A stretch of DNA of 64,000 nucleotides from Clostridia bacterium (GTDB lineage Bacteria > Bacillota > Clostridia > UMGS1810): assembly GCA_045540815.1 (NCBI GenBank), contig JAZQHY010000040.1, positions 8,539 to 72,538 of the forward strand, read 5' to 3'. The notes below the pieces were generated by a model, which did no database searches, had not been told where the DNA came from, and saw nothing but the letters and a program-made list of their open reading frames with translations. Of the stretch, positions 2,740-42,823 are shown piece by piece (the first letter of the stretch is position 1; each line of letters opens with the position of its first letter). The translations under genes were made by a program, and so were the position numbers.

Positions 2740-3645
2740 ATGAGCATATTATACAGAGCATTTGGATGGCTACTTAATTTTATATATGGATTTGTATCTA
2801 ACTACGGCTTAAGCATAATCCTTTTCACTATCCTTACAAAGGTTATACTTTTCCCATTAAGCTTAAAACAACAAAAGTCTATGGTAAAGATGCAGCAGGT
2901 TCAGCCGCGACTTAAAGAGATACAGGAAAAATATAAATCTGACCAGCAGCGTCAGAGCGAGGAAATGATGAAGCTATATAAAGAGCACGGCGTAAACCCT
3001 ATGGGCGGTTGTCTTCCACTACTCATTCAGCTTCCTATACTTCTTGCGCTATATCGCGTAATGTATCAGCCGCTTACTTATATGCTTGGCTATGGTGCTG
3101 ATAAAATCGGAGAGCTTGCCGAAAAATTTGGTATTGCTATGGACAATGCCAGAATGGCGGAAATAGCTATTGCAAACGCGGGAAAGCTTATAGATTTCAG
3201 CTTCTTTGGGCTTGATTTATCGCTTAATCCTAGTATAATGGTACCTTCGCTTTTGTGGATTATACCTATCACAGCGGCGCTTACTACATTTTTGTCAAGC
3301 AAGGTAACTACTGCTATGAACAAAACTACTAAAACAGAAGAAGATGAAAAACCAAAGAGAGTTTTATCGGCAGAGCCAAGTCAAAACAAAGGCAATACCG
3401 ACAGCGCACAGAGTATGACAAAGTCGATGAACGTTATGATGCCTATTATGACACTTTGGATTACATTTACTGTTCCTGCGGCGCTAGGTCTATACTGGAC
3501 AATGTCAAACCTTATTTCTATGATTCAGCAGATTGTTCTAAATAAAATATACGGGCCAAAATTCAAAGAAGAAGTAGATGCTAAGGAAATGGAAAAAGAG
3601 CTTATCAGAAAAGAAAAATATAAATACAAGAAGAAAAAGAAATAA
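2740..3645 (+). CDS. yidC: YidC/Oxa1 family membrane insertase (SpoIIIJ-like)
   Basis: Conserved block FPLSLKQQKSMVKMQQVQP..YKEHGVNPMGGCLPLLIQLPIL, a basic C-tail, and synteny. Confidence 0.9.
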   Translation: MSILYRAFGWLLNFIYGFVSNYGLSIILFTILTKVILFPLSLKQQKSMVKMQQVQPRLKEIQEKYKSDQQRQSEEMMKLYKEHGVNPMGGCLPLLIQLPILLALYRVMYQPLTYMLGYGADKIGELAEKFGIAMDNARMAEIAIANAGKLIDFSFFGLDLSLNPSIMVPSLLWIIPITAALTTFLSSKVTTAMNKTTKTEEDEKPKRVLSAEPSQNKGNTDSAQSMTKSMNVMMPIMTLWITFTVPAALGLYWTMSNLISMIQQIVLNKIYGPKFKEEVDAKEMEKELIRKEKYKYKKKKK

Positions 3646-9898: not shown

Positions 9899-10247
9899 GG
9901 GGGCGCAATGGTTTCGACGGGGATGTTGAAGCCGGAGGAGCGAGTAGTTGCAGAGACAACTATAAAACTCTAAACTTTAAAATTAAACGCTAACGATAAT
10001 TTAGCTTACGCTGCCTAATTAACGGCAGCCGTTCTTACTCAGGCTACCGCACCTGAGATAAGAGCGTCATCTTCGCGGTGAACGTGAGCAGGTAAAGTTT
10101 TGAGCCTGCCATGAATAATGAAACTACCAAGCATTAGAGTTTGTTTGTGGACTCTACTGTGAGGGAAATTGTGACCACAAACTACACTCGTAGCGCCTTG
10201 GGTGAATAGATTTTCGGACAGGAGTTCGATTCTCCTCGCCTCCACCA
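9899..10247 (+). ncRNA. ssrA: tmRNA (SsrA), tag reading frame 9989-10018
   Basis: 5' GGGGGCGCAATGGTTTCGACGGGG and 3' GGAGTTCGATTCTCCTCGCCTCCACCA. The internal ORF GCT AAC GAT AAT TTA GCT TAC GCT GCC TAA encodes ANDNLAYAA. Confidence 0.95.
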
Positions 10248-10250
10248 AAA

Positions 10251-10284
10251 AATATCACAGGCTTTTGCCTGTGATATTTTTTTA
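10251..10284 (+). terminator. tmRNA terminator
   Basis: AATATCACAGGC-TTTT-GCCTGTGATATT followed by a T-run. Confidence 0.85.
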
Positions 10285-10294
10285 TTAGATAAGA

Positions 10295-10307
10295 GAGAAT
10301 CGAACTC
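10295..10307 (-). repeat. Inverted 13-nt copy of the tmRNA T-arm
   Basis: GAGAATCGAACTC is the exact reverse complement of 10222-10234. Confidence 0.8.
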
Positions 10308-10431
10308 AACTATCATCTCCCTTTTTTGGTAAGCAGCAAGGTGTTATGCATAAAAAATTTAATTTTTCTACTATATTATATCTTTTGTTTATGAAAAATG
10401 ACGAAAGTTGATTATTTTTCTGAACTACTAG

Positions 10432-34472: not shown

Positions 34473-34538
34473 ATTTTAACTCTTTTTCTGTATGGAAATT
34501 CAAAAAGTATGAAAAAATTCAAAAATATTTTAAAAAAA

Positions 34539-34554
34539 TGTTCCACATGGAACA
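34539..34554. promoter_or_regulatory. parS-like centromere site upstream of soj
   Basis: TGTTCCACATGGAACA. It shares the 15-mer CACATGGAACATTTT with the site at 25926. Confidence 0.6.
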
Positions 34555-34597
34555 TTTTTGTGGTACAATATGTTTATATTACAAAAGGAGGGGTGTT

Positions 34598-35368
34598 ATG
34601 GGCAAGATAATAGCCATTGCCAACCAGAAAGGGGGAGTTGGCAAAACCACAACTTCGGTTAACTTGAGCTCGGCACTTGGAGTACTTGGAAAAAAAGTCC
34701 TTCTTATAGATATCGACCCTCAGGGAAACGCATCAAGCGGAGTAGGTGTGGTTGAACTTGAAGATAAAAACACCATATACGATGTATTGGTTGACGGTAT
34801 AGATATAAATGAAGCCATAATCAAAACAGAGTTTGAAAATCTTTTCCTTTGCCCGTCGGACATATCGCTTGCGGGTGCTGAAATAGAGCTTGTGGCACTT
34901 GACAACAGAGAGTTCAGATTTAAAAATGCTCTTGACAATGTAAAAGATGAATATGATTTTATTATAATTGATTGTCCGCCGTCGCTTGGGCTTCTTACAC
35001 TAAATGTATTTGTAGGAGCAGACAGTGTGCTTATACCAATCCAGTGCGAATACTATGCGCTTGAGGGACTTAGCCAACTTATGAACACTATCAGAATGGT
35101 GAAAAAAGCGCTAAATCCTTCTATAGATATAGAAGGGGTACTTCTTACGATGTTTGATGCACGAACAAACCTTTCTATACAGGTAGTGGAGGAAGTAAAA
35201 AAATATTATCCTAATAAGGTATACACTACTGTTATACCTAGAAACGTTCGTCTTAGCGAGGCTCCATCATTTGGTCAGCCTATAGACGTGTATGATAAAC
35301 ATTCAAAGGGTGCGCATTGCTATGCCGAACTTGCAAAAGAGGTAGCAAATGCAAACAAAGGAGAGTGA
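34598..35368 (+). CDS. soj: ParA-family chromosome partitioning ATPase Soj
   Basis: KIIAIANQKGGVGKTTT deviant Walker A. The ATG at 34598 follows GGAGGGG. Confidence 0.92.
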   Translation: MGKIIAIANQKGGVGKTTTSVNLSSALGVLGKKVLLIDIDPQGNASSGVGVVELEDKNTIYDVLVDGIDINEAIIKTEFENLFLCPSDISLAGAEIELVALDNREFRFKNALDNVKDEYDFIIIDCPPSLGLLTLNVFVGADSVLIPIQCEYYALEGLSQLMNTIRMVKKALNPSIDIEGVLLTMFDARTNLSIQVVEEVKKYYPNKVYTTVIPRNVRLSEAPSFGQPIDVYDKHSKGAHCYAELAKEVANANKGE

Positions 35369-35373
35369 AAAAG

Positions 35374-36237
35374 ATGGCAAAAGGATTAGGGCGCGGTCTT
35401 GGTGCTCTTATAAAAGAAAGTCCGGTTATCGAAGAAACTGTAACCGCTACGCCAAACGGTATTGTTACAGAGCTTAAGATAGTTGATGTTGAGCCGAATA
35501 AAGGTCAGCCGCGCAAGGATTTTGACGAGGAAGCACTGGAGGCACTAAGTGCATCTATAAAAGAACACGGCGTTATCCAGCCGATACTTGTTATAAAATC
35601 CAAAAATGGTTTTTATAAGATAATAGCGGGCGAGAGAAGATGGCGTGCTGCTAAAATGGCAGGACTTAAAAAAATTCCTGCAATTATAAAAGAGTATGAC
35701 GATGTTAAAGCGTATGAGGTATCGCTTATAGAAAACCTTCAGAGAGAGGACCTAAATCCTATCGAAGAGTCGCTTGGCTATAAAAAACTTATTGACGAAT
35801 TTTCACTTACACAGGAGCAAATAGCTAAAAGAGTAAGTAAGTCAAGGTCGGCGGTTGCAAATTCATTAAGACTTTTAACACTTCCTGACGAGGTGGTAAG
35901 CCTTATAGAAGATAAAAAGCTTTCTACAGGTCACGCAAAAGTGCTGTTGTCGGCAAGTGACAAAAAATTTATTGTGGAAACCGCAAAGCTTGTAGCCGAA
36001 AAACAAATAAGCGTGCGTGAGCTTGAAAAAATAATTAAGCTAGAAGGAAGACCACGACCTAAAGAGAAAAAAGAGGATTTAAATTTAAAGCTTGCGATTT
36101 TGGAGCTTGAAAAAACAGCTTCCGAACTTATAGGTTCGAAGGTGAAAATTTCCGGAGGCAAGAATAAAGGCAAAATTGAAATTGAATATTATGGAAATGA
36201 CGATTTAGAAAGAATAATTAATCTGCTAAAAAAATAA
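35374..36237 (+). CDS. spo0J: Chromosome partitioning protein ParB/Spo0J
   Basis: MAKGLGRGLGALI, GERRWRAAKMAGL, LIENLQREDLNP. The ATG at 35374 follows GGAGAG. Confidence 0.92.
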   Translation: MAKGLGRGLGALIKESPVIEETVTATPNGIVTELKIVDVEPNKGQPRKDFDEEALEALSASIKEHGVIQPILVIKSKNGFYKIIAGERRWRAAKMAGLKKIPAIIKEYDDVKAYEVSLIENLQREDLNPIEESLGYKKLIDEFSLTQEQIAKRVSKSRSAVANSLRLLTLPDEVVSLIEDKKLSTGHAKVLLSASDKKFIVETAKLVAEKQISVRELEKIIKLEGRPRPKEKKEDLNLKLAILELEKTASELIGSKVKISGGKNKGKIEIEYYGNDDLERIINLLKK

Positions 36238-36414
36238 ATTCCAAAAACTTACAGATTTACGAAAAACCGCAAAAAATTGGCTTTTAAAAACAAACTCTGC
36301 TGACATTTTACAACATAGGTAATATGATTTCGCGCAAAAAGCGATAAACTCGTTAGAATCCAAAATATTAGATATTTTGAACATAGATGGTTTTACAAAG
36401 GAGATGAATGAGGT

Positions 36415-36816
36415 TTGAAACAAAATACAAAGTTTTTATGGCTTTATACTGCTATACTTTTTTCGTTTGCGCTAATACTTATAATTTTTGCCGGGTTAAC
36501 TCAAAATAATTTCCAAAAAGAAATTGAAGAGAGCGACAAAACAAATAAGACAATGCTCGAACAAATTGAAACACTAAAGAATGAAAACGCAAAACTTTCT
36601 GAAGAACTTAAAACTATTTCGGAAAATCTTGAACTTGCAAAAACTGAAAATGAAGAATTGACAGTTTATAAAGAAAACGGCGAAAAGATATTTGAAGCGT
36701 ATCAACTTTTAAATAAGGGAAGAAATGAAAGTGCTGTAAGTAAGATACAGGATCTTGACACCGATCTTCTTACCCCTATGCAGTTATACTTATACAAAAT
36801 CATTATACAATACTAA
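36415..36816 (+). CDS. Hypothetical membrane-anchored coiled-coil protein
   Basis: TTG start, one N-terminal TM segment (WLYTAILFSFALILIIFAGL), then a heptad-like K/E-rich region. No recognised family. Confidence 0.45.
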   Translation: MKQNTKFLWLYTAILFSFALILIIFAGLTQNNFQKEIEESDKTNKTMLEQIETLKNENAKLSEELKTISENLELAKTENEELTVYKENGEKIFEAYQLLNKGRNESAVSKIQDLDTDLLTPMQLYLYKIIIQY

Positions 36817-36828
36817 GGAGAGATAAAA

Positions 36829-38097
36829 ATGTTAGACATAAAAATTTTAAGAACAGAACCTGAAAAGGTTAAAGCAGCGCTTAAAAGCAGAAACTCTGAA
36901 ATAGATGTTGATGCTATCATAAAGCTTGACGAGGAAAGAAGAAGTGTACTTTTTAAAGTTGAGCAGCTTAAGAGCAAACAAAACGAAGAAAGCAAAAAAA
37001 TTCCTCAGCTAAAAAAAGAGGGTAAGGACGTAAGCGGTATTTTTGAAGAAATGAAAAAACTTTCTGACGAGATTAAAGCGCTTGATGCAGAAGTAAGAGA
37101 ATACGACGAAAAAGTGCAGATGGCTATGCTTACCATTCCAAATATCCCCGATGAATCGGTGCCAATCGGTGACAGTGATGCAGATAATGTTGAGATAAGA
37201 AAACATCTAGAGCCAAGAAAGTTTGATTTTGAACCAAAGGCGCATTGGGATATTGGTGAAGGCCTTGATATCCTTGACTTTGAACGCGGTGCAAAGATTT
37301 CAGGCGCGCGTTTTACTGTGTACAAAGGTCTTGGTGCAAGACTTGAAAGAGCGGTAATTCAGTTCTTCCTAAACACTCACACAGAAGAGTCGGGATACAC
37401 AGAAATATTCCCTCCATATATGGTAAACAGAGCATCTATGACAGGTACAGGTCAGCTTCCAAAATTTGAAGAAGATGCATTCAAGGTTTCAAACAACGGC
37501 TATTTTATGATACCTACAGCAGAAGTTCCCGTTACAAATCTTCACAGAGATGAAATTCTTGACGGAAGCAAGCTTCCTATAAAATATGCTGCGTATTCAG
37601 CGTGCTTCAGAGCAGAAGCAGGCTCTGCCGGCAGAGATACCAGAGGCCTTATCCGTCAGCATCAGTTCAATAAGGTTGAGCTTGTAAAATTTGCAAAACC
37701 TGAAGACAGCTTTGCAGAATTAGAATCACTTACAAACGACGCAGAAAAGCTATTACAGAAGCTTGGTATAGCATACAGAGTGGTTTGTCTATCATCTGGC
37801 GACCTTGGTTTTTCTTCTGCAAAAACATACGATATCGAGGTGTGGATGCCAAGCTACGGCAGATATGTTGAGATTTCTTCTTGCTCAAACTTTGTCGATT
37901 ATCAGGCAAGACGCGCTAATATTAAGTTTAAAAACTCTCCTAAGGACAAAGCTCAGTTTGTTCATACTCTAAACGGCTCAGGTCTTGCAGTGGGCAGAAC
38001 TGTTGCAGCTATACTTGAAAACTATCAGAACGAAGACGGCAGCGTAACAGTTCCTGAGGTTTTAAGGCCTTATATGGGTACAGATATTATTAAATAA
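36829..38097 (+). CDS. serS: Seryl-tRNA synthetase
   Basis: MLDIKILR N-terminal coiled coil plus class II motifs ([30 protein letters not shown]). Confidence 0.95.
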
Positions 38098-38113
38098 AAA
38101 TCTGAAAAAAGTG

Positions 38114-38142
38114 TTGACAAGCAATATTACGTGTGGTATTAT
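38114..38142 (+). promoter_or_regulatory. Extended -10 sigmaA promoter of the aro leader
   Basis: TTGACA (38114-38119), 17 nt, TGgTATTAT (38134-38142). Confidence 0.65.
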
Positions 38143-38174
38143 ATTTTTAATAAATTTATGAGGATTGTTTAACT

Positions 38175-38243
38175 ATGAAAAGATTAAGCTTTGCAGCTGA
38201 ATACTTTTATTACTTTTACTTTAGCAAAACAAAAATAAAGTAA
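38175..38243 (+). CDS. Tyr/Phe-rich leader peptide (22 aa) of the aroF-tyrA operon
   Basis: MKRLSFAAEYFYYFYFSKTKIK. GAGGA RBS 10 nt upstream. 7 aromatic codons in 8 consecutive positions. Confidence 0.6.
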   Translation: MKRLSFAAEYFYYFYFSKTKIK

Positions 38244-38308
38244 GAGTGATTTCTGATGCTGCAAATCGAATGTAGTCCTTGTATAAATAATAATACTTCG
38301 ATTAATAA

Positions 38309-38350
38309 GGTTCTATCACAGTGAGAAATCACAGTGGAAGAACCTTTTTT
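38309..38350 (+). terminator. Attenuator terminator upstream of aroF
   Basis: GGTTCTATCACAGTGA-GAAA-TCACAGTGGAAGAACC (13/16 bp) followed by TTTTTT. An alternative 9-bp pairing exists between GTGATTTCT (38246-38254) and AGAAATCAC inside the terminator. Confidence 0.7.
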
Positions 38351-38378
38351 AATTCGAAAAATTTGGGAGGAAATAAAA

Positions 38379-39380
38379 ATGATAGTAATTTTAAAAGACA
38401 AAACACCAAAACAGCAGATTGACAAGCTAGTTGGCTGGGTCGAAGAACAGGGCGTTGGAGCGCATCTTTTTGAGGGACATTTCCAGACAGTTATAGGACT
38501 TATCGGCGATACATCAAAAATTGATACCGACATCATTAGAACTCTTGATTGCGTAAGTGATGTTAAGCACATTTCGGAGCCGTTTAAGAGCGCAAACAGA
38601 AAGTTCCACCCCGACGATACAGTAGTTGATATCAGCGGAGTAAAACTTGGCGGCGGGAATTTCCAGATTATAGCAGGTCCTTGTTCTATTGAATCGGAAT
38701 CACAGCTTATTGAAACTGCAAACGGCGTTAAAGCTGCAGGAGCAAAGCTTCTTCGCGGCGGTGCGTTCAAACCAAGAACTTCTCCTTACGCGTTTCAGGG
38801 TATGAGAGCTGAAGGTCTTGAGCTTCTTAAAAAAGCAAAGAAGGAAACTGGTCTTCCTATAGTAACAGAGATTATGGATATATCTCATCTTGAACTTTTT
38901 GACGATGTAGATGTTATACAGGTTGGCGCTAGAAATATGCAAAATTTTGAGCTTTTAAAAGAGCTTGGTAAAACAAGAAAACCAATCCTTTTAAAAAGAG
39001 GCCTTTCAAGTACTATTCAGGAACTGCTAATGAGTGCTGAATACATTATGGCTAGCGGCAATGAAAATGTCATCCTATGCGAAAGAGGTATCAGAACATT
39101 TGAAACTACAACCAGAAACACCCTTGATATCTCGGCTGTATCGGTTATCAAAGAACTAAGCCACTTACCTGTAATAATTGACCCATCTCATGCTTGCGGT
39201 ATTGCTAAGCTTGTTAAGCCTATGGCTATGGCAGCTGCGGCAGCAGGCGCAGACGGTCTTATGATAGAAGTTCACAACAACCCCGCAAAAGCACTTTGTG
39301 ATGGCCCACAGTCACTTACTCCTGACCAGTTTGCAGATGTTGTTAAGAGTGTAAACAAGGTTTTGGAGGCGTGCAAATAA
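38379..39380 (+). CDS. aroF: 3-deoxy-7-phosphoheptulonate (DAHP) synthase, type I-beta with N-terminal regulatory domain
   Basis: IAGPCSIES, LRGGAFKPRTSPY, PVIIDPSH. The ATG at 38379 follows GGGAGG. The ORF-track start at 38334 lies inside the terminator. Confidence 0.88.
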   Translation: MIVILKDKTPKQQIDKLVGWVEEQGVGAHLFEGHFQTVIGLIGDTSKIDTDIIRTLDCVSDVKHISEPFKSANRKFHPDDTVVDISGVKLGGGNFQIIAGPCSIESESQLIETANGVKAAGAKLLRGGAFKPRTSPYAFQGMRAEGLELLKKAKKETGLPIVTEIMDISHLELFDDVDVIQVGARNMQNFELLKELGKTRKPILLKRGLSSTIQELLMSAEYIMASGNENVILCERGIRTFETTTRNTLDISAVSVIKELSHLPVIIDPSHACGIAKLVKPMAMAAAAAGADGLMIEVHNNPAKALCDGPQSLTPDQFADVVKSVNKVLEACK

Positions 39381-40216
39381 TGAACGTAGGTATTGTAGGT
39401 CTTGGACTTATAGGTGGTTCGCTGGCAAAAGCGTTTAAAAGGCATACAAATCATACCATACTTGGTATGGACGTTGCTCATGCGCCCGTTGCTGCGGCAA
39501 AGCTTTTGGACGCTATAGACGATGAACTAACTGCAGACAGACTTTGTGAGTGCGATATAATTATTATGGCGACATATCCGCGTGCAACAGTAGAATTTTT
39601 GGAAAATAATGCTTCAAAAATAAAAAAAGGTGCAAAGGTTATTGATTGTGGCGGTGTAAAGAGAGTGGTTTGCGAAAAATGCTTTGATATTGCAGCAAAA
39701 AACGAATTTACGTTTATTGGCGGACACCCTATGGCAGGCACGCAGTTTACAGGTTTTAAATACTCTATTGAGGATATGTTTGACGACGCGTCGATAATTC
39801 TCGTTCCTGAACGCACAGACGATATAAGCCTTTTATCTGAGATAAAGAATATATTTACAGACATTGGCTTTGCATCGGTAACCATTTCAAAAGCTGACGA
39901 ACACGACGAGATTATCGCATTTACATCACAGCTTGCTCACGTGGTGTCAAATGCATACGTGAAAAGTCCAACTGCAAAGCGCCATAAAACCTTTTCTGCA
40001 GGCAGCTACAAGGATTTAACCCGTGTGGCAAAGCTTAACGAAACAATGTGGTCGGAGCTTTTTATAGATAACGGCGACAATTTATCGCACGAGATAGAAT
40101 CGCTTATAACCGAGCTTTCTAAATATAACGAAGCGATAAAAAACAAAGATTTTGATGCGTTGAAGGAACTTCTAAAGCAAGGCAGAGAGCTTAAAGAACA
40201 AATAGATGGTGTATGA
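39380..40216 (+). CDS. tyrA: Prephenate dehydrogenase
   Basis: MNVGIVGLGLIGGSLA Rossmann fold and GGHPMAG. The start overlaps the aroF stop (TAATG). Confidence 0.85.
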   Translation: MNVGIVGLGLIGGSLAKAFKRHTNHTILGMDVAHAPVAAAKLLDAIDDELTADRLCECDIIIMATYPRATVEFLENNASKIKKGAKVIDCGGVKRVVCEKCFDIAAKNEFTFIGGHPMAGTQFTGFKYSIEDMFDDASIILVPERTDDISLLSEIKNIFTDIGFASVTISKADEHDEIIAFTSQLAHVVSNAYVKSPTAKRHKTFSAGSYKDLTRVAKLNETMWSELFIDNGDNLSHEIESLITELSKYNEAIKNKDFDALKELLKQGRELKEQIDGV

Positions 40217-40220
40217 TATA

Positions 40221-40345
40221 AAGGGATAGCGATAGGGCGCGTTTTCTTAGGGATGAAATGTCCAAAATGCATTGTTTTGGTGCATTACATTGTCAAAACC
40301 AATTAATCCCTAAGAGAACGAGCCCTAGGCTATCCCTTTTTTGCT
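40221..40345 (+). terminator. Unusually long compound hairpin plus T-tract after tyrA
   Basis: AAGGGATAGC/GCTATCCCTT, TAGGGC/GCCCTA and GTTTTCTTAGGGA/TCCCTAAGAGAAC give about 29 bp. They enclose a 53-nt apical region. The hairpin is followed by TTTTTT. Confidence 0.6.
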
Positions 40346-40347
40346 TA

Positions 40348-40376
40348 TTGACAAAAAAGCCTAGTAATAATAAAAT
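40348..40376 (+). promoter_or_regulatory. Promoter of the pqqD-like operon
   Basis: TTGACA (40348-40353), 17 nt, TAAAAT (40371-40376). Confidence 0.55.
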
Positions 40377-40410
40377 AGAAATAGTAGTATTAATTTGGAG
40401 GTAATACATT

Positions 40411-40674
40411 ATGAAGATAAAATCAGGCTTTATTCTAAAAGACGTTGCAGGTAGCAACCTTATAGTGCCAATAGGCGAGAACTTGGTTGATTTCAGCCAG
40501 ATGATAACTATAAACGAAACAGGAGCATTTCTTTTTAATAAATTAATTGACGGTGCAGAGCTTGATGAACTTGCTAATGCTTTGACAGAGGAGTACGATG
40601 TGGATTTTGACAGCGCAAAATCTGATGCCGAAAAATTTGTTAAGCTTCTTGCTGACGAAGGAATGTTAGAATAA
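40411..40674 (+). CDS. PqqD-family protein (RiPP recognition element-like)
   Basis: 87 aa with the pattern ...LIVPIGE..MITINETGAFLFNKL..ELDELANALTEEYDVD...DAEKFVKLLADEGML, typical of PqqD/RRE domains. Confidence 0.75.
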   Translation: MKIKSGFILKDVAGSNLIVPIGENLVDFSQMITINETGAFLFNKLIDGAELDELANALTEEYDVDFDSAKSDAEKFVKLLADEGMLE

Positions 40675-41153
40675 TGATAGAATTTGAAAAGATAAAATAT
40701 GCCCAGATGAAATCAATAGTTCCGCTTATACAAAGCGTAATTTCAGACGGACGGGAGGCTAAAATACGCGTTACAGGAAACAGTATGTACCCGACTCTTA
40801 TTGACAGGCGGGATACTGTTCGTCTTTGTACTATTGATAGGATTAAAGTCGGCGATGTCATACTATACCTCCGTGAAAACGGTGATTACGTTCTTCATCG
40901 CGTTATCGGGAAAAAAGGAGATAACCTAGCTTTTGCTGGCGACAATGAACTCATTCGTGAATATCCTGTAAGCACATCGCAGTGCATAGCGAAAATGACC
41001 GGTTTTATAAGAAACGGTAAAGAATATGATTGCAAAACAAACATCAAATATAGATTTATGGTTTTTTTGTGGACTCGTCTGTTTTGTATGAGAGGTATTT
41101 TGGCAAAGGTATTTGGAGTATATATTTTAATAAGAAGGAGATTTAAAAAGTGA
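40674..41153 (+). CDS. S24/S26-family serine peptidase, SipW/ER-type-like (Ser-His)
   Basis: GNSMYPTL box and HRVIGKKGD box, with His where bacterial SPase I has Lys. No N-terminal TM segment and a hydrophobic C-terminal tail. The start overlaps the pqqD stop. Confidence 0.65.
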   Translation: MIEFEKIKYAQMKSIVPLIQSVISDGREAKIRVTGNSMYPTLIDRRDTVRLCTIDRIKVGDVILYLRENGDYVLHRVIGKKGDNLAFAGDNELIREYPVSTSQCIAKMTGFIRNGKEYDCKTNIKYRFMVFLWTRLFCMRGILAKVFGVYILIRRRFKK

Positions 41154-42823
41154 GTGGTAAAAACGGTGCATTAAGCTGGATAATCAAACATTCCAAACGA
41201 TATATTCCACACCTGTGTGTACTTACAAATTTAGGAATATTTATATCTGCTTTAGCGGTTGCGTTTTCCCTTGTTTCTAAAAACGTAGTTGATATAGCAG
41301 CTGGTCAAATACCCGGAAATCTTATTGTCGCAGCGCTTGGACTTGGATTTCTTATAATCAGCCAATTAGTTGTACATATCCTTTACTCGCTTATTGATGT
41401 TAGATTTTTAGGAAGGCTTAGAATTACCCTTAGAAATGAATTGTTTTCTTCGATATTAAGCAAAAAGTGGATAGAAATCACCAAATATCACACTGGTGAA
41501 CTGCAGAATAGATTGTACAGCGATATAGGAGTTGTTGTGTCAGGTGTAGTTGACATAATCCCTAATGCGGTGTCTTTTATAGCTCGAATTGTACTTAGCT
41601 TCTGCGCGCTTTATATGATGGATTCTTTTTTTGCCGTGCTTTGCTTGTTGGTAGGCCCTGTTATACTTGTGCTAACACGCGTTTACAGCAAATATATGAA
41701 AAGATGGCATAAGAGATGCCTTGAAAGCGAAGGTAAAGTTCGCTCGTTCTTGCAGGAGTGTTTACAAAATCTTATAGTAATTAAGTCGTTTGGAAACGAA
41801 AATAAGATTGTAGATAATGCTACAAAGCTTCAAAACGATGCTTACAATCTTGAAATAAAGAGAAATAACATAAGTATATCTGCTTCTGTTATGTTCTCGC
41901 TTGTTATGACTGTCGCATACTATTTTACGCTTGGCTGGTGTGCATATAAACTTTCTATGGGCGTGATGTCTTTCGGTACACTTATTGCAATGCTTCAGCT
42001 TGTGGGTCAGGTTCAGTCGCCATTTAAGGAGCTTTCGTCCATTTTGCCTAAATATTATTCTATGATAGCCTCGGCGGAGCGAATTTTGGAAATTGAGCAA
42101 ATGAACGATGATAAATGTGAAAACGACCAAAATGCATATGATTTGTATAATAATATGGAGAAAATTGTCGTTGAAAATCTTTCGTTTTCGTATGATAATG
42201 AAAAAGTTCTTGATGATACAGGCTTTGAGATAGAAAAAGGTGAGTTTGTAGCGATTTGCGGCCGTTCGGGAATAGGTAAAAGCACTATCCTTAAACTACT
42301 CTTGAGTATTATATACCCTGACGCAGGACGTATATATATGAAGCTTTCCGACGGAATTAGCGTTCCAATATCGAAGGACACCAGAAGCTTATTTGCATAT
42401 GTGCCACAGGGAAATATGATACTTTCTGGTACTATACGTGAGAACATAGCTTTTTCAAACAAAACCGCATCTGACGAGGATATCAAAAGATGCGCGCAGG
42501 CAGCAGATATGTGGGAGTATATAGAATCTCTTCCTGACGGACTTGATACTATGCTTGGTGAAAAAGGTTTGGGTTTGTCGGAGGGTCAAATTCAAAGGCT
42601 TGCAATAGCCAGAGCGCTTTTATATGATGCGCCCATACTTCTTTTGGACGAGGCTACCTCGGCACTTGACGACGCTACAGAAAAGCGGGTTATTGGCAAT
42701 ATAAGAGAGATGAACAAAAAAACTTGTATATTTGTTTCTCATAAAAAAGCCGCTGTCGAAATGTGTGATAAAAGTGTAGTGATAAACAATGGGAATTTTG
42801 AAATTTTGCACAAAAACAAATAA
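41150..42823 (+). CDS. ABC exporter, fused permease-ATPase (no C39 peptidase domain)
   Basis: N-terminal 6-TM domain, GRSGIGKST, LSEGQIQRLAIARAL, LLLDEATSALD. GTG start overlaps the previous stop. Confidence 0.88.
   Translation: MSGKNGALSWIIKHSKRYIPHLCVLTNLGIFISALAVAFSLVSKNVVDIAAGQIPGNLIVAALGLGFLIISQLVVHILYSLIDVRFLGRLRITLRNELFSSILSKKWIEITKYHTGELQNRLYSDIGVVVSGVVDIIPNAVSFIARIVLSFCALYMMDSFFAVLCLLVGPVILVLTRVYSKYMKRWHKRCLESEGKVRSFLQECLQNLIVIKSFGNENKIVDNATKLQNDAYNLEIKRNNISISASVMFSLVMTVAYYFTLGWCAYKLSMGVMSFGTLIAMLQLVGQVQSPFKELSSILPKYYSMIASAERILEIEQMNDDKCENDQNAYDLYNNMEKIVVENLSFSYDNEKVLDDTGFEIEKGEFVAICGRSGIGKSTILKLLLSIIYPDAGRIYMKLSDGISVPISKDTRSLFAYVPQGNMILSGTIRENIAFSNKTASDEDIKRCAQAADMWEYIESLPDGLDTMLGEKGLGLSEGQIQRLAIARALLYDAPILLLDEATSALDDATEKRVIGNIREMNKKTCIFVSHKKAAVEMCDKSVVINNGNFEILHKNK

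Follow-up and report, generated by a model that had tools for sequence, protein, structure and literature searches.

A probable ribosome-mediated attenuator with a Tyr/Phe leader peptide upstream of aroF-tyrA in Clostridia

Main finding

The 64,000-nucleotide (nt) stretch of contig JAZQHY010000040.1 from a Clostridia bacterium, called the window below, carries a short leader region between serS and aroF-tyrA, the genes for 3-deoxy-7-phosphoheptulonate (DAHP) synthase and prephenate dehydrogenase. This leader is very probably a ribosome-mediated transcription attenuator that reports the charging of tRNA-Tyr and tRNA-Phe and controls aroF-tyrA. It combines the features by which the class is recognized: a translatable leader open reading frame (ORF) with its ribosome-binding site (RBS), a cluster of codons for amino acids of the pathway, a terminator before the first gene and mutually exclusive helices. 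Our case is built on the anatomy of the leader, its conservation, its reading frame, the covariation of its helices and the in-silico behaviour of masked nascent RNA; a response to charged tRNA is what these observations point to. A first-pass annotation of the same DNA had proposed the logic of the trp, pheA and his attenuators for the aroF-tyrA leader, and this proposal is supported by conservation, covariation and constrained folding.

In the mechanism that we propose, the promoter at 38114-38142 would start a transcript whose 5′ leader encodes a 22-codon peptide. With charged tRNA-Tyr and tRNA-Phe plentiful, the ribosome would reach the stop codon (38241-38243), inside what we call segment 2 of the leader RNA, and would cover the start of that segment; the terminator would then fold and transcription would end near 38350. 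With charged tRNA-Tyr or tRNA-Phe scarce, the ribosome would stall on the aromatic run and mask segment 1, and a free segment 2 would capture the nascent 5′ arm of the terminator, letting RNA polymerase read into aroF-tyrA. A leader that is not translated at all would form helices 1:2 and 3:4 and be terminated. Termination at about 38350, stalling as the driver of read-through and the limiting one of Tyr and Phe in vivo are the parts of this scheme that we infer.

Anatomy of the leader

The features of the leader and of the first gene, all on the + strand, are as follows.

38114-38142, +, sigma-70-type promoter TTGACA-17-TATTAT with an extended -10 TG, 11 of 12 consensus positions
38160-38164, +, leader Shine-Dalgarno sequence GAGGA, 10 nt before the ATG at 38175
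38175-38243, +, leader ORF of 22 codons, MKRLSFAAEYFYYFYFSKTKIK and then a stop, from translation
38202-38222, +, sensor run Y F Y Y F Y F, codons 10-16, seven consecutive Tyr/Phe codons, read from the sequence
38190-38223, +, segment 1, made of an outer strand UUUGCAGC (38190-38197) and an inner strand (38209-38223), with most of the aromatic codons inside
38236-38267, +, segment 2, the switch strand, holding the leader stop codon and GUGAUUUCU (38246-38254), from folding
38265-38302, +, spacer hairpin, ATCGAATGTA (38265-38274) with TACTTCGAT (38294-38302), one bulge, from folding
38307-38350, +, segments 3 and 4, the intrinsic terminator, with its stem at 38307-38346, a GAAA loop and a U-run ending at 38350, from folding
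38365-38370, +, aroF Shine-Dalgarno sequence GGGAGG, beyond the terminator and free of pairing in the predicted folds
38379-39380, +, aroF, DAHP synthase, 333 amino acids (aa), matching NF006421 with 498 bits against a cutoff of 335

Transcription is expected to start near 38149. The 5′ half of the leader had been read correctly in the first-pass annotation, which listed the promoter at 38114-38142, an RBS-preceded ORF of 22 codons and seven aromatic codons in eight positions (38202-38225); the aromatic count is exact, with the seven codons being consecutive, and a further Phe stands at codon 6. The aroF start that it gave, 38379, is an ATG with GGGAGG upstream, and the protein that it opens matches DAHP synthase.

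The terminator needs a small correction. Its hairpin, its GAAA loop and its T6 (38345-38350) are as described at first, but the 16-nt arms are not perfect: the stem of 16 base pairs (bp) contains two A-A mismatches and one G-U pair. These mismatches are why a simple terminator scanner did not report the attenuator hairpin, and direct folding was used instead, giving -21.3 kcal/mol and z = -5.5 against shuffled sequences. The hairpin, with its U-run, lies 33 nt upstream of aroF.

Conservation in related Clostridia

For comparison we used 80 loci, outside the window's own species, whose AroF is 64-73% identical to that of the window (81 loci with the window included). All are from Clostridia, mostly metagenome-assembled genomes of Acutalibacteraceae, Oscillospiraceae, Lachnospiraceae and Christensenellaceae, with two cultured species among them; the closest AroF relatives, at 73% identity, are in Candidatus Fimenecus and Acutalibacteraceae. 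Cultured carriers of the leader include Angelakisella massiliensis (L019) and Hominicoprocola fusiformis (L017). When the best small ATG-initiated ORF was taken from the 450 nt or less upstream of aroF, it held at least five, and usually six to eight, aromatic residues in eight positions in 61 of the 80 relatives, so that 62 loci bear a leader when the window is counted, with FAAEYFYFYF as the recurring motif. A codon scan blind to frame found an in-frame Tyr/Phe run upstream of aroF in 72 of the 81 loci. Lack of conservation of the leader ORF in relatives, which the first-pass annotation had named as grounds for abandoning its reading, is not what we see. Small ORFs elsewhere in the same loci served as controls: 3 of 3632 reached six aromatic residues in eight and 28 reached five. 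The leaders contain 4.8 Phe and 4.0 Tyr on average; Trp occurs in only two of the 62.

The promoter is also shared. A match of at least 10 of 12 consensus positions within 110 nt upstream of the leader ATG was present in 75% of 60 related loci versus 2.3% of control windows, and the median distance from the end of the -10 element to that ATG is 32 nt in the related loci, compared with 33 nt in the window.

Mutually exclusive helices and covariation

Three mutually exclusive helices are possible in the leader RNA, 1:2, 2:3 and 3:4. Segment 2 has two possible partners, segment 1 and the terminator's 5′ arm plus loop (38309-38332), and pairing with the latter gives the antiterminator. In the minimum-free-energy fold, which consists of helix 1:2 and the terminator (z = -6.0 for the whole leader), the aromatic codons at 38209-38223 pair with 38236-38250, and an outer helix between UUUGCAGC (38190-38197) and GCUGCAAA (38258-38265) closes helix 1:2. 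With its inner and outer helices both found, the leader shows the complete three-helix architecture of the trp/pheA type; the 1:2 helix formed by the aromatic codons had been absent from the first description of the element. The antiterminator 9-mer GTGATTTCT occupies 38246-38254, and its complement AGAAATCAC, at 38324-38332, comprises the terminator loop and the top of the 3′ arm. Complementarity and location are therefore as first annotated, although the 9-mer starts 2 nt after the leader stop codon and not 3 nt. The spacer hairpin noted at the same time does appear in the folds but is not conserved in the relatives, falling in a variable insert region of the three alignments that we made (A1 to A3); the pairing ATCGAATGTA...TACTTCGAT looks specific to the window.

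We looked for the competing helices in each locus separately. For 61 loci, duplexes were predicted between the spacer that follows the aromatic run and either the 5′ arm and loop of the terminator or the aromatic-codon region, and compared with those obtained after shuffling the spacer. Both duplexes were stronger than expected, with a mean z of -2.9 for the antiterminator (75% of loci below -2) and of -2.9 for helix 1:2 (74% below -2), and in 93% of the loci the two share at least 4 nt of segment 2.

Covariation was measured on alignments. In the first MAFFT alignment (A1), five terminators, including that of the window, were out of register, and it was rebuilt without them as A2, a sequence-only MAFFT alignment of 20 relatives from which the window is excluded. 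On A2, helix 1:2 and the terminator are 85% paired, versus 33-53% in slid registers, and 16 of their 30 pairs show compensatory changes, a score reached by none of 500 shuffles. The antiterminator is 80% paired, versus 24-56% when slid, with compensatory changes in 7 of 12 pairs and again none of 500 shuffles as high. In the terminator stem, compensatory pairs number 10 of 12 in the seed alignment A2 and 12 of 12 in the model-fitted A3. The antiterminator found across the family corresponds to the pairing GUGAUUUCU:AGAAAUCAC of the window.

A covariance model built from A2 (R1), and hence from the 20 relatives without the window, matches the window at 38184-38351 over the full length of the model (56.3 bits, E about 1e-9). 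Among the 81 sources it finds 49 elements, all directly upstream of aroF. In the alignment of these 49, 28 of 30 model pairs are compensatory, a figure biased in favour of the model to which that alignment was fitted. Taken together, dozens of species of Clostridia keep the ORF, its frame, the terminator and the alternative pairings, with covariation, which answers the covariation check proposed in the first-pass annotation.

Folding of the nascent RNA

Constrained folding reproduced both states that had been predicted at first, with the switch segment freed by a stalled ribosome and covered by a ribosome at the stop codon. When the RNA was ended at 38334 and a ribosome was placed as a mask over 38196-38229, 38246-38254 paired with 38324-38332 in the best fold, and 38256-38267 paired with 38309-38322. 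Moving the ribosome to the stop codon abolishes the antiterminator pairing and allows the top of the terminator to form, and without any ribosome helices 1:2 and 3:4 both form. In silico, then, the stalled ribosome hides segment 1 and the one at the stop codon hides segment 2, and the alternative structures whose folding had been suggested as a check were obtained.

Several observations weigh against an attenuator of this kind, or against its simplest form. Equilibrium folding of the full-length leader always gives the terminator as the best structure, even when segment 1 is masked, so the switch must be kinetic, as in the trp and pheA attenuators. The antiterminator core of the window has only 9 bp, plus scattered extensions. 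A stall at the last aromatic codons (P-site at 38220) leaves the outer 1:2 helix able to form again behind the ribosome, and a fold other than the antiterminator then comes out best. In the alignment of 49 sequences, the antiterminator held in a fixed register covaries weakly (68.5% paired; score 0.189, reached by 16 of 500 shuffles, versus 0.167 after shuffling). Its register is shifted among subfamilies, for instance in loci L001 and L006, and we took the support for this helix from A2 and from the per-locus shuffling test, not from that fixed register. Some close relatives, such as L003, have no leader at all. No aromatic leader was found upstream of aroF in L003, L023, L027, L043, L050, L055, L060, L068 and L073, nor in L033 and L046, where aroF follows a gene whose C-terminal end we take, as read by eye and with no family search, to be pheA-like. 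A scan of 17 leaderless loci detected no T-box or other Rfam element in them. From these genomes, the attenuator is judged to be common among the relatives and not universal. Finally, the aroR leader of Corynebacterium glutamicum, which is compared with ours below, responded in experiments to limitation of Phe only and not of Tyr, in the account of it given in PMC11802643; dual sensing of Tyr and Phe is therefore not guaranteed in the window element.

Alternative explanations

An improbable alternative keeps the conserved helices and dispenses with the ribosome: the leader would be an attenuator that does not depend on translation and that responds to a protein or small ligand, such as an RNA-binding protein recognizing UAC/UUU repeats much as TRAP does its own, and the small ORF would be incidental. 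Indeed, UUUUAC repeats regularly in the aromatic run, which also supplies one strand of a conserved helix, so that constraints at the RNA level alone could preserve much of it, and its codon choice is skewed as pairing would demand (UUU 252 versus UUC 43). The reading frame, however, tells otherwise. In 63 of the 72 loci that have a run, the aromatic frame has an ATG with its Shine-Dalgarno sequence, versus 3-4 of 72 for the other two frames, which argues for translation of the leader rather than for an RNA-only repeat. Where the run has changed, it has kept to aromatic residues (Phe to Tyr), with a compensating change in the partner strand. At pair 38-71 of A2, for instance, the codon goes from Phe UUU to Tyr UAU and the pair from UA to AU, so that aromatic identity and pairing are both kept. 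The placement of the stop codon relative to segment 2 is constrained as well: in all 61 loci it is found no more than 15 nt before segment 2, or else inside that segment or past it, which means that a terminating or translating ribosome always covers segment 2. No Rfam riboswitch or protein-binding leader family matched either, and the Rfam search of 37000-41000, at E-values up to 10, returned only spurious snoRNA and miRNA matches; at the gathering threshold, neither the whole window nor 20 related loci yielded a family of relevance.

We also find it improbable that the leader acts mainly on the translation of aroF or on mRNA stability, through coupling or occlusion of the RBS, and not on termination. 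Leader peptides that control translation do exist, such as the erm leaders (PMC8274638). Here, however, a canonical hairpin with a U-run stands between the leader and aroF in 61 of the 62 loci (60 found by scan and L013 by hand). The aroF Shine-Dalgarno sequence (38365-38370) lies at least 15 nt past the stem and stays single-stranded in every predicted fold, and what the alternative structure competes with is the terminator and not the RBS.

A functional hydrophobic micro-peptide co-expressed with aroF, for instance a membrane peptide, is a still more remote explanation of the small ORF. Its N-terminal motif, FAAEYFYF, is fairly well conserved as a peptide; yet the codons for FAAE fall on the UUUGCAGC helix strand, the peptide is anywhere between 14 and 45 residues long, and its C-termini show no conservation at the peptide level but track the RNA of segment 2 in whichever frame they meet it (...SKSDLCC versus ...FTAEK, for example). 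That the hairpin is simply the terminator or insulator of serS, with the aromatic ORF and the pairings arising by chance in AT-rich intergenic DNA, is effectively refuted by conservation: the absence of a separate terminator between the serS stop (38097) and the promoter does speak for it, and the attenuator hairpin may for that reason also stop read-through from serS, but the hairpin lies downstream of a strong promoter and an ORF of its own, the module of ORF and terminator precedes aroF in unrelated neighbourhoods at more than 100 loci, and the chance rates are tiny (3 of 3632 control ORFs with at least six aromatic residues in eight).

Genomic context of the window

The transcription unit continues beyond aroF with the following features.

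39371-40216, +, tyrA, prephenate dehydrogenase, with NF006307 as best match (E = 4e-55), under the equivalog cutoff
40220-40345, +, very long hairpin followed by U6, -62.4 kcal/mol, z = -8.8

The start of tyrA is either the GTG at 39371 or the ATG at 39380, with an overlap with the end of aroF. The hairpin directly after its stop codon is unusually long (about 120 nt), near-perfect and found once in the window, and it is probably the terminator that ends the leader-aroF-tyrA transcription unit. The operon of the window thus contains aroF and tyrA only, where that of the relatives is usually aroF-tyrA-aroB-aroA(-aroC); aroB and aroA were not located within the stretch of the window that we examined.

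Upstream, 34538-38097 is occupied by parA-parB, an ORF of 133 aa (36415-36816) without any Pfam match, and serS (36829-38097; TIGR00414, 573 bits), the immediate neighbour of the leader region. GC skew is positive throughout the whole window, and it suggests a leading-strand, origin-proximal region of the chromosome.

Downstream of the long hairpin, a strong promoter (TTGACA-17-TAAAAT, 40348-40376) precedes three genes, encoding a PqqD-family protein (40411-40674), a weakly signal-peptidase-like protein (40674-41153) and an ATP-binding cassette (ABC) exporter (41150-42823). The region 40348-42823 looks like a cluster for the maturation and export of a peptide, similar to those of ribosomally synthesized and post-translationally modified peptides; no precursor peptide was identified in it.

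Elsewhere in the window, a tmRNA gene (9899-10247, 152 bits) has a bidirectional-looking terminator at about 10244-10290. The remaining R1 matches in the window score at most 28.6 bits and were rejected as second attenuators; the best of them, at 10244-10358 on the minus strand, is this plain terminator adjacent to the tmRNA gene. A tetrahydrofolate riboswitch (823-919, 58 bits) lies near the start of the window.

Elements upstream of other genes and a candidate regulon

A metagenome scan with a pattern of the exact peptide core of the window gave no match. With a looser leader pattern that did not require aroF, 56 metagenome loci were found, 43 of them with aroF downstream. In four others the full element, as recognized by R1, precedes a different gene of aromatic metabolism, which suggests from gene order a regulon beyond aroF. 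At one locus (L094, leader at 3314-3445 on the minus strand, 108 bits) these genes encode a PaaK-like phenylacetate-CoA ligase and the alpha subunit of an indolepyruvate:ferredoxin oxidoreductase. The arrangement hints at a reductive carboxylation leading from arylacetates to amino acids that would be switched on by Tyr/Phe starvation; the two enzymes may make aromatic amino acids in this way. At another (L092, 3247-3368, 80 bits), the leader MAFVNFAAAYYYYYFATR lies before a TrpX-like ABC substrate-binding protein and a permease, possibly an uptake system for aromatic amino acids.

The last two loci, L110 (321-465) and L118 (2305-2442), have the element (R1 scores of 55 and 52 bits, respectively) before genes of the tyrosine-phenol-lyase/tryptophanase family, and their leaders carry six consecutive Tyr codons with no Phe in the run (FAAEYYYYYY). 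A degradative-type lyase may here be induced by Tyr-tRNA shortage, for which the reverse, Tyr-forming reaction is one possible reason. Tuning of the codons to the downstream gene is no more than suggestive, since Tyr-only leaders also occur before aroF (L015 and L029).

We tentatively propose, as a possibility of nearly even standing, that the leaders form a large and apparently uncatalogued family in gut and rumen Clostridia that senses the charging of Tyr-tRNA and Phe-tRNA, defines a small regulon and takes the role of the T-box. As gathered from these loci, the regulon appears to comprise aroF-tyrA-aroB-aroA-aroC, the PaaK-like ligase with its oxidoreductase, the TrpX-like transporter and, with Tyr-only leaders, the tyrosine-phenol-lyase-like enzyme. 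If confirmed, abundant and mostly uncultured gut and rumen Clostridia would set the flux entering aromatic synthesis by leader-peptide attenuation and not by the expected T-box. The links of the PaaK-oxidoreductase pair, the TrpX-like transporter and the tyrosine-phenol-lyase-like enzyme to Tyr/Phe starvation are testable leads; they concern the scavenging of aromatic amino acids or their re-synthesis from phenylacetate or phenol, and are relevant to host-microbe chemistry. In addition, genome pipelines at present ignore this intergenic element and its tiny ORF, and R1 offers a covariance model with which both can be annotated. What gives the element its value is the wide spread of the family among gut Clostridia, together with the apparent regulon and the lack of a catalogue entry; it brings no new principle and leaves the understanding of attenuation as such unchanged.

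Comparison with known systems

T-boxes are transcription attenuators of Firmicutes that read tRNA charging by binding uncharged tRNA directly, with no need for translation. They are functional analogues of the window element, serving amino-acid genes through a choice between antiterminator and terminator. We rejected a T-box (RF00230) here, since it had no match in 37000-41000 at E-values up to 10, nor in the whole window or 20 related loci at the gathering threshold. The Phe, Leu/Phe, Trp, His, Leu and Thr leaders of Rfam were likewise absent from the matches up to E = 10 in 37000-41000.

In Firmicutes, leader peptides have been reported as unusual replacements for T-boxes (PMC2965389), and their rarity in this phylum, asserted in the first-pass annotation, is a fair statement. 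The Leu/Phe leader of Lactococcus and the His leaders of Bacilli (PMC2965389) resemble the window element in being leader-peptide attenuators of Firmicutes, but they belong to other operons, use other codons and are unrelated in sequence.

The same idea is already known for aroF itself. Compared by its published description only, uORFC-13-1 (Brewer et al. 2021, PMC8632094), a predicted attenuator based on an upstream ORF and located exclusively upstream of aroF, shares with the window a promoter, an RBS, a start codon and Phe codons, with an intrinsic terminator after them. It differs in having a U run that codes for at least one Phe, Tyr codons being unmentioned, and in its distribution, with 24 representatives confined to Acholeplasma and unidentified environmental DNA (PMC8632094). 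We found no further paper that mentions it.

The C. glutamicum aroR leader, the nearest precedent, is described as a Phe-Tyr-Phe leader directly upstream of aroF that acts by ribosome-mediated attenuation (Neshat et al. 2014, as recounted in PMC11802643 and PMC4046766). Like the window element, it is a short ORF with Phe and Tyr codons directly upstream of the DAHP synthase gene. As far as these descriptions allow comparison, its host is actinobacterial and its aromatic codons are a Phe-Tyr-Phe triplet, whereas the window has 7-8 of them; aroR was also shown experimentally to respond to Phe, while the window element is known from its sequence. We found no paper describing a Tyr/Phe leader family in Clostridia, in a literature whose coverage is incomplete, so this absence is not proof. 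The clostridial family of FAAEYFYFYF-type aroF leaders seems to be uncatalogued; its mechanism is textbook.

In function the window element is of the type of pheL-pheA and the trp attenuators; the logic proposed for it is identical, and so are the three helices, the regulatory codons placed in segment 1 and the stop codon placed so that a terminating ribosome covers segment 2. These systems, pheL-pheA and pheM-pheST of E. coli together with the trp, his, leu and thr leaders, are proteobacterial, and each senses a single amino acid; in E. coli, aroF-tyrA is itself controlled by the TyrR repressor and not by a leader.

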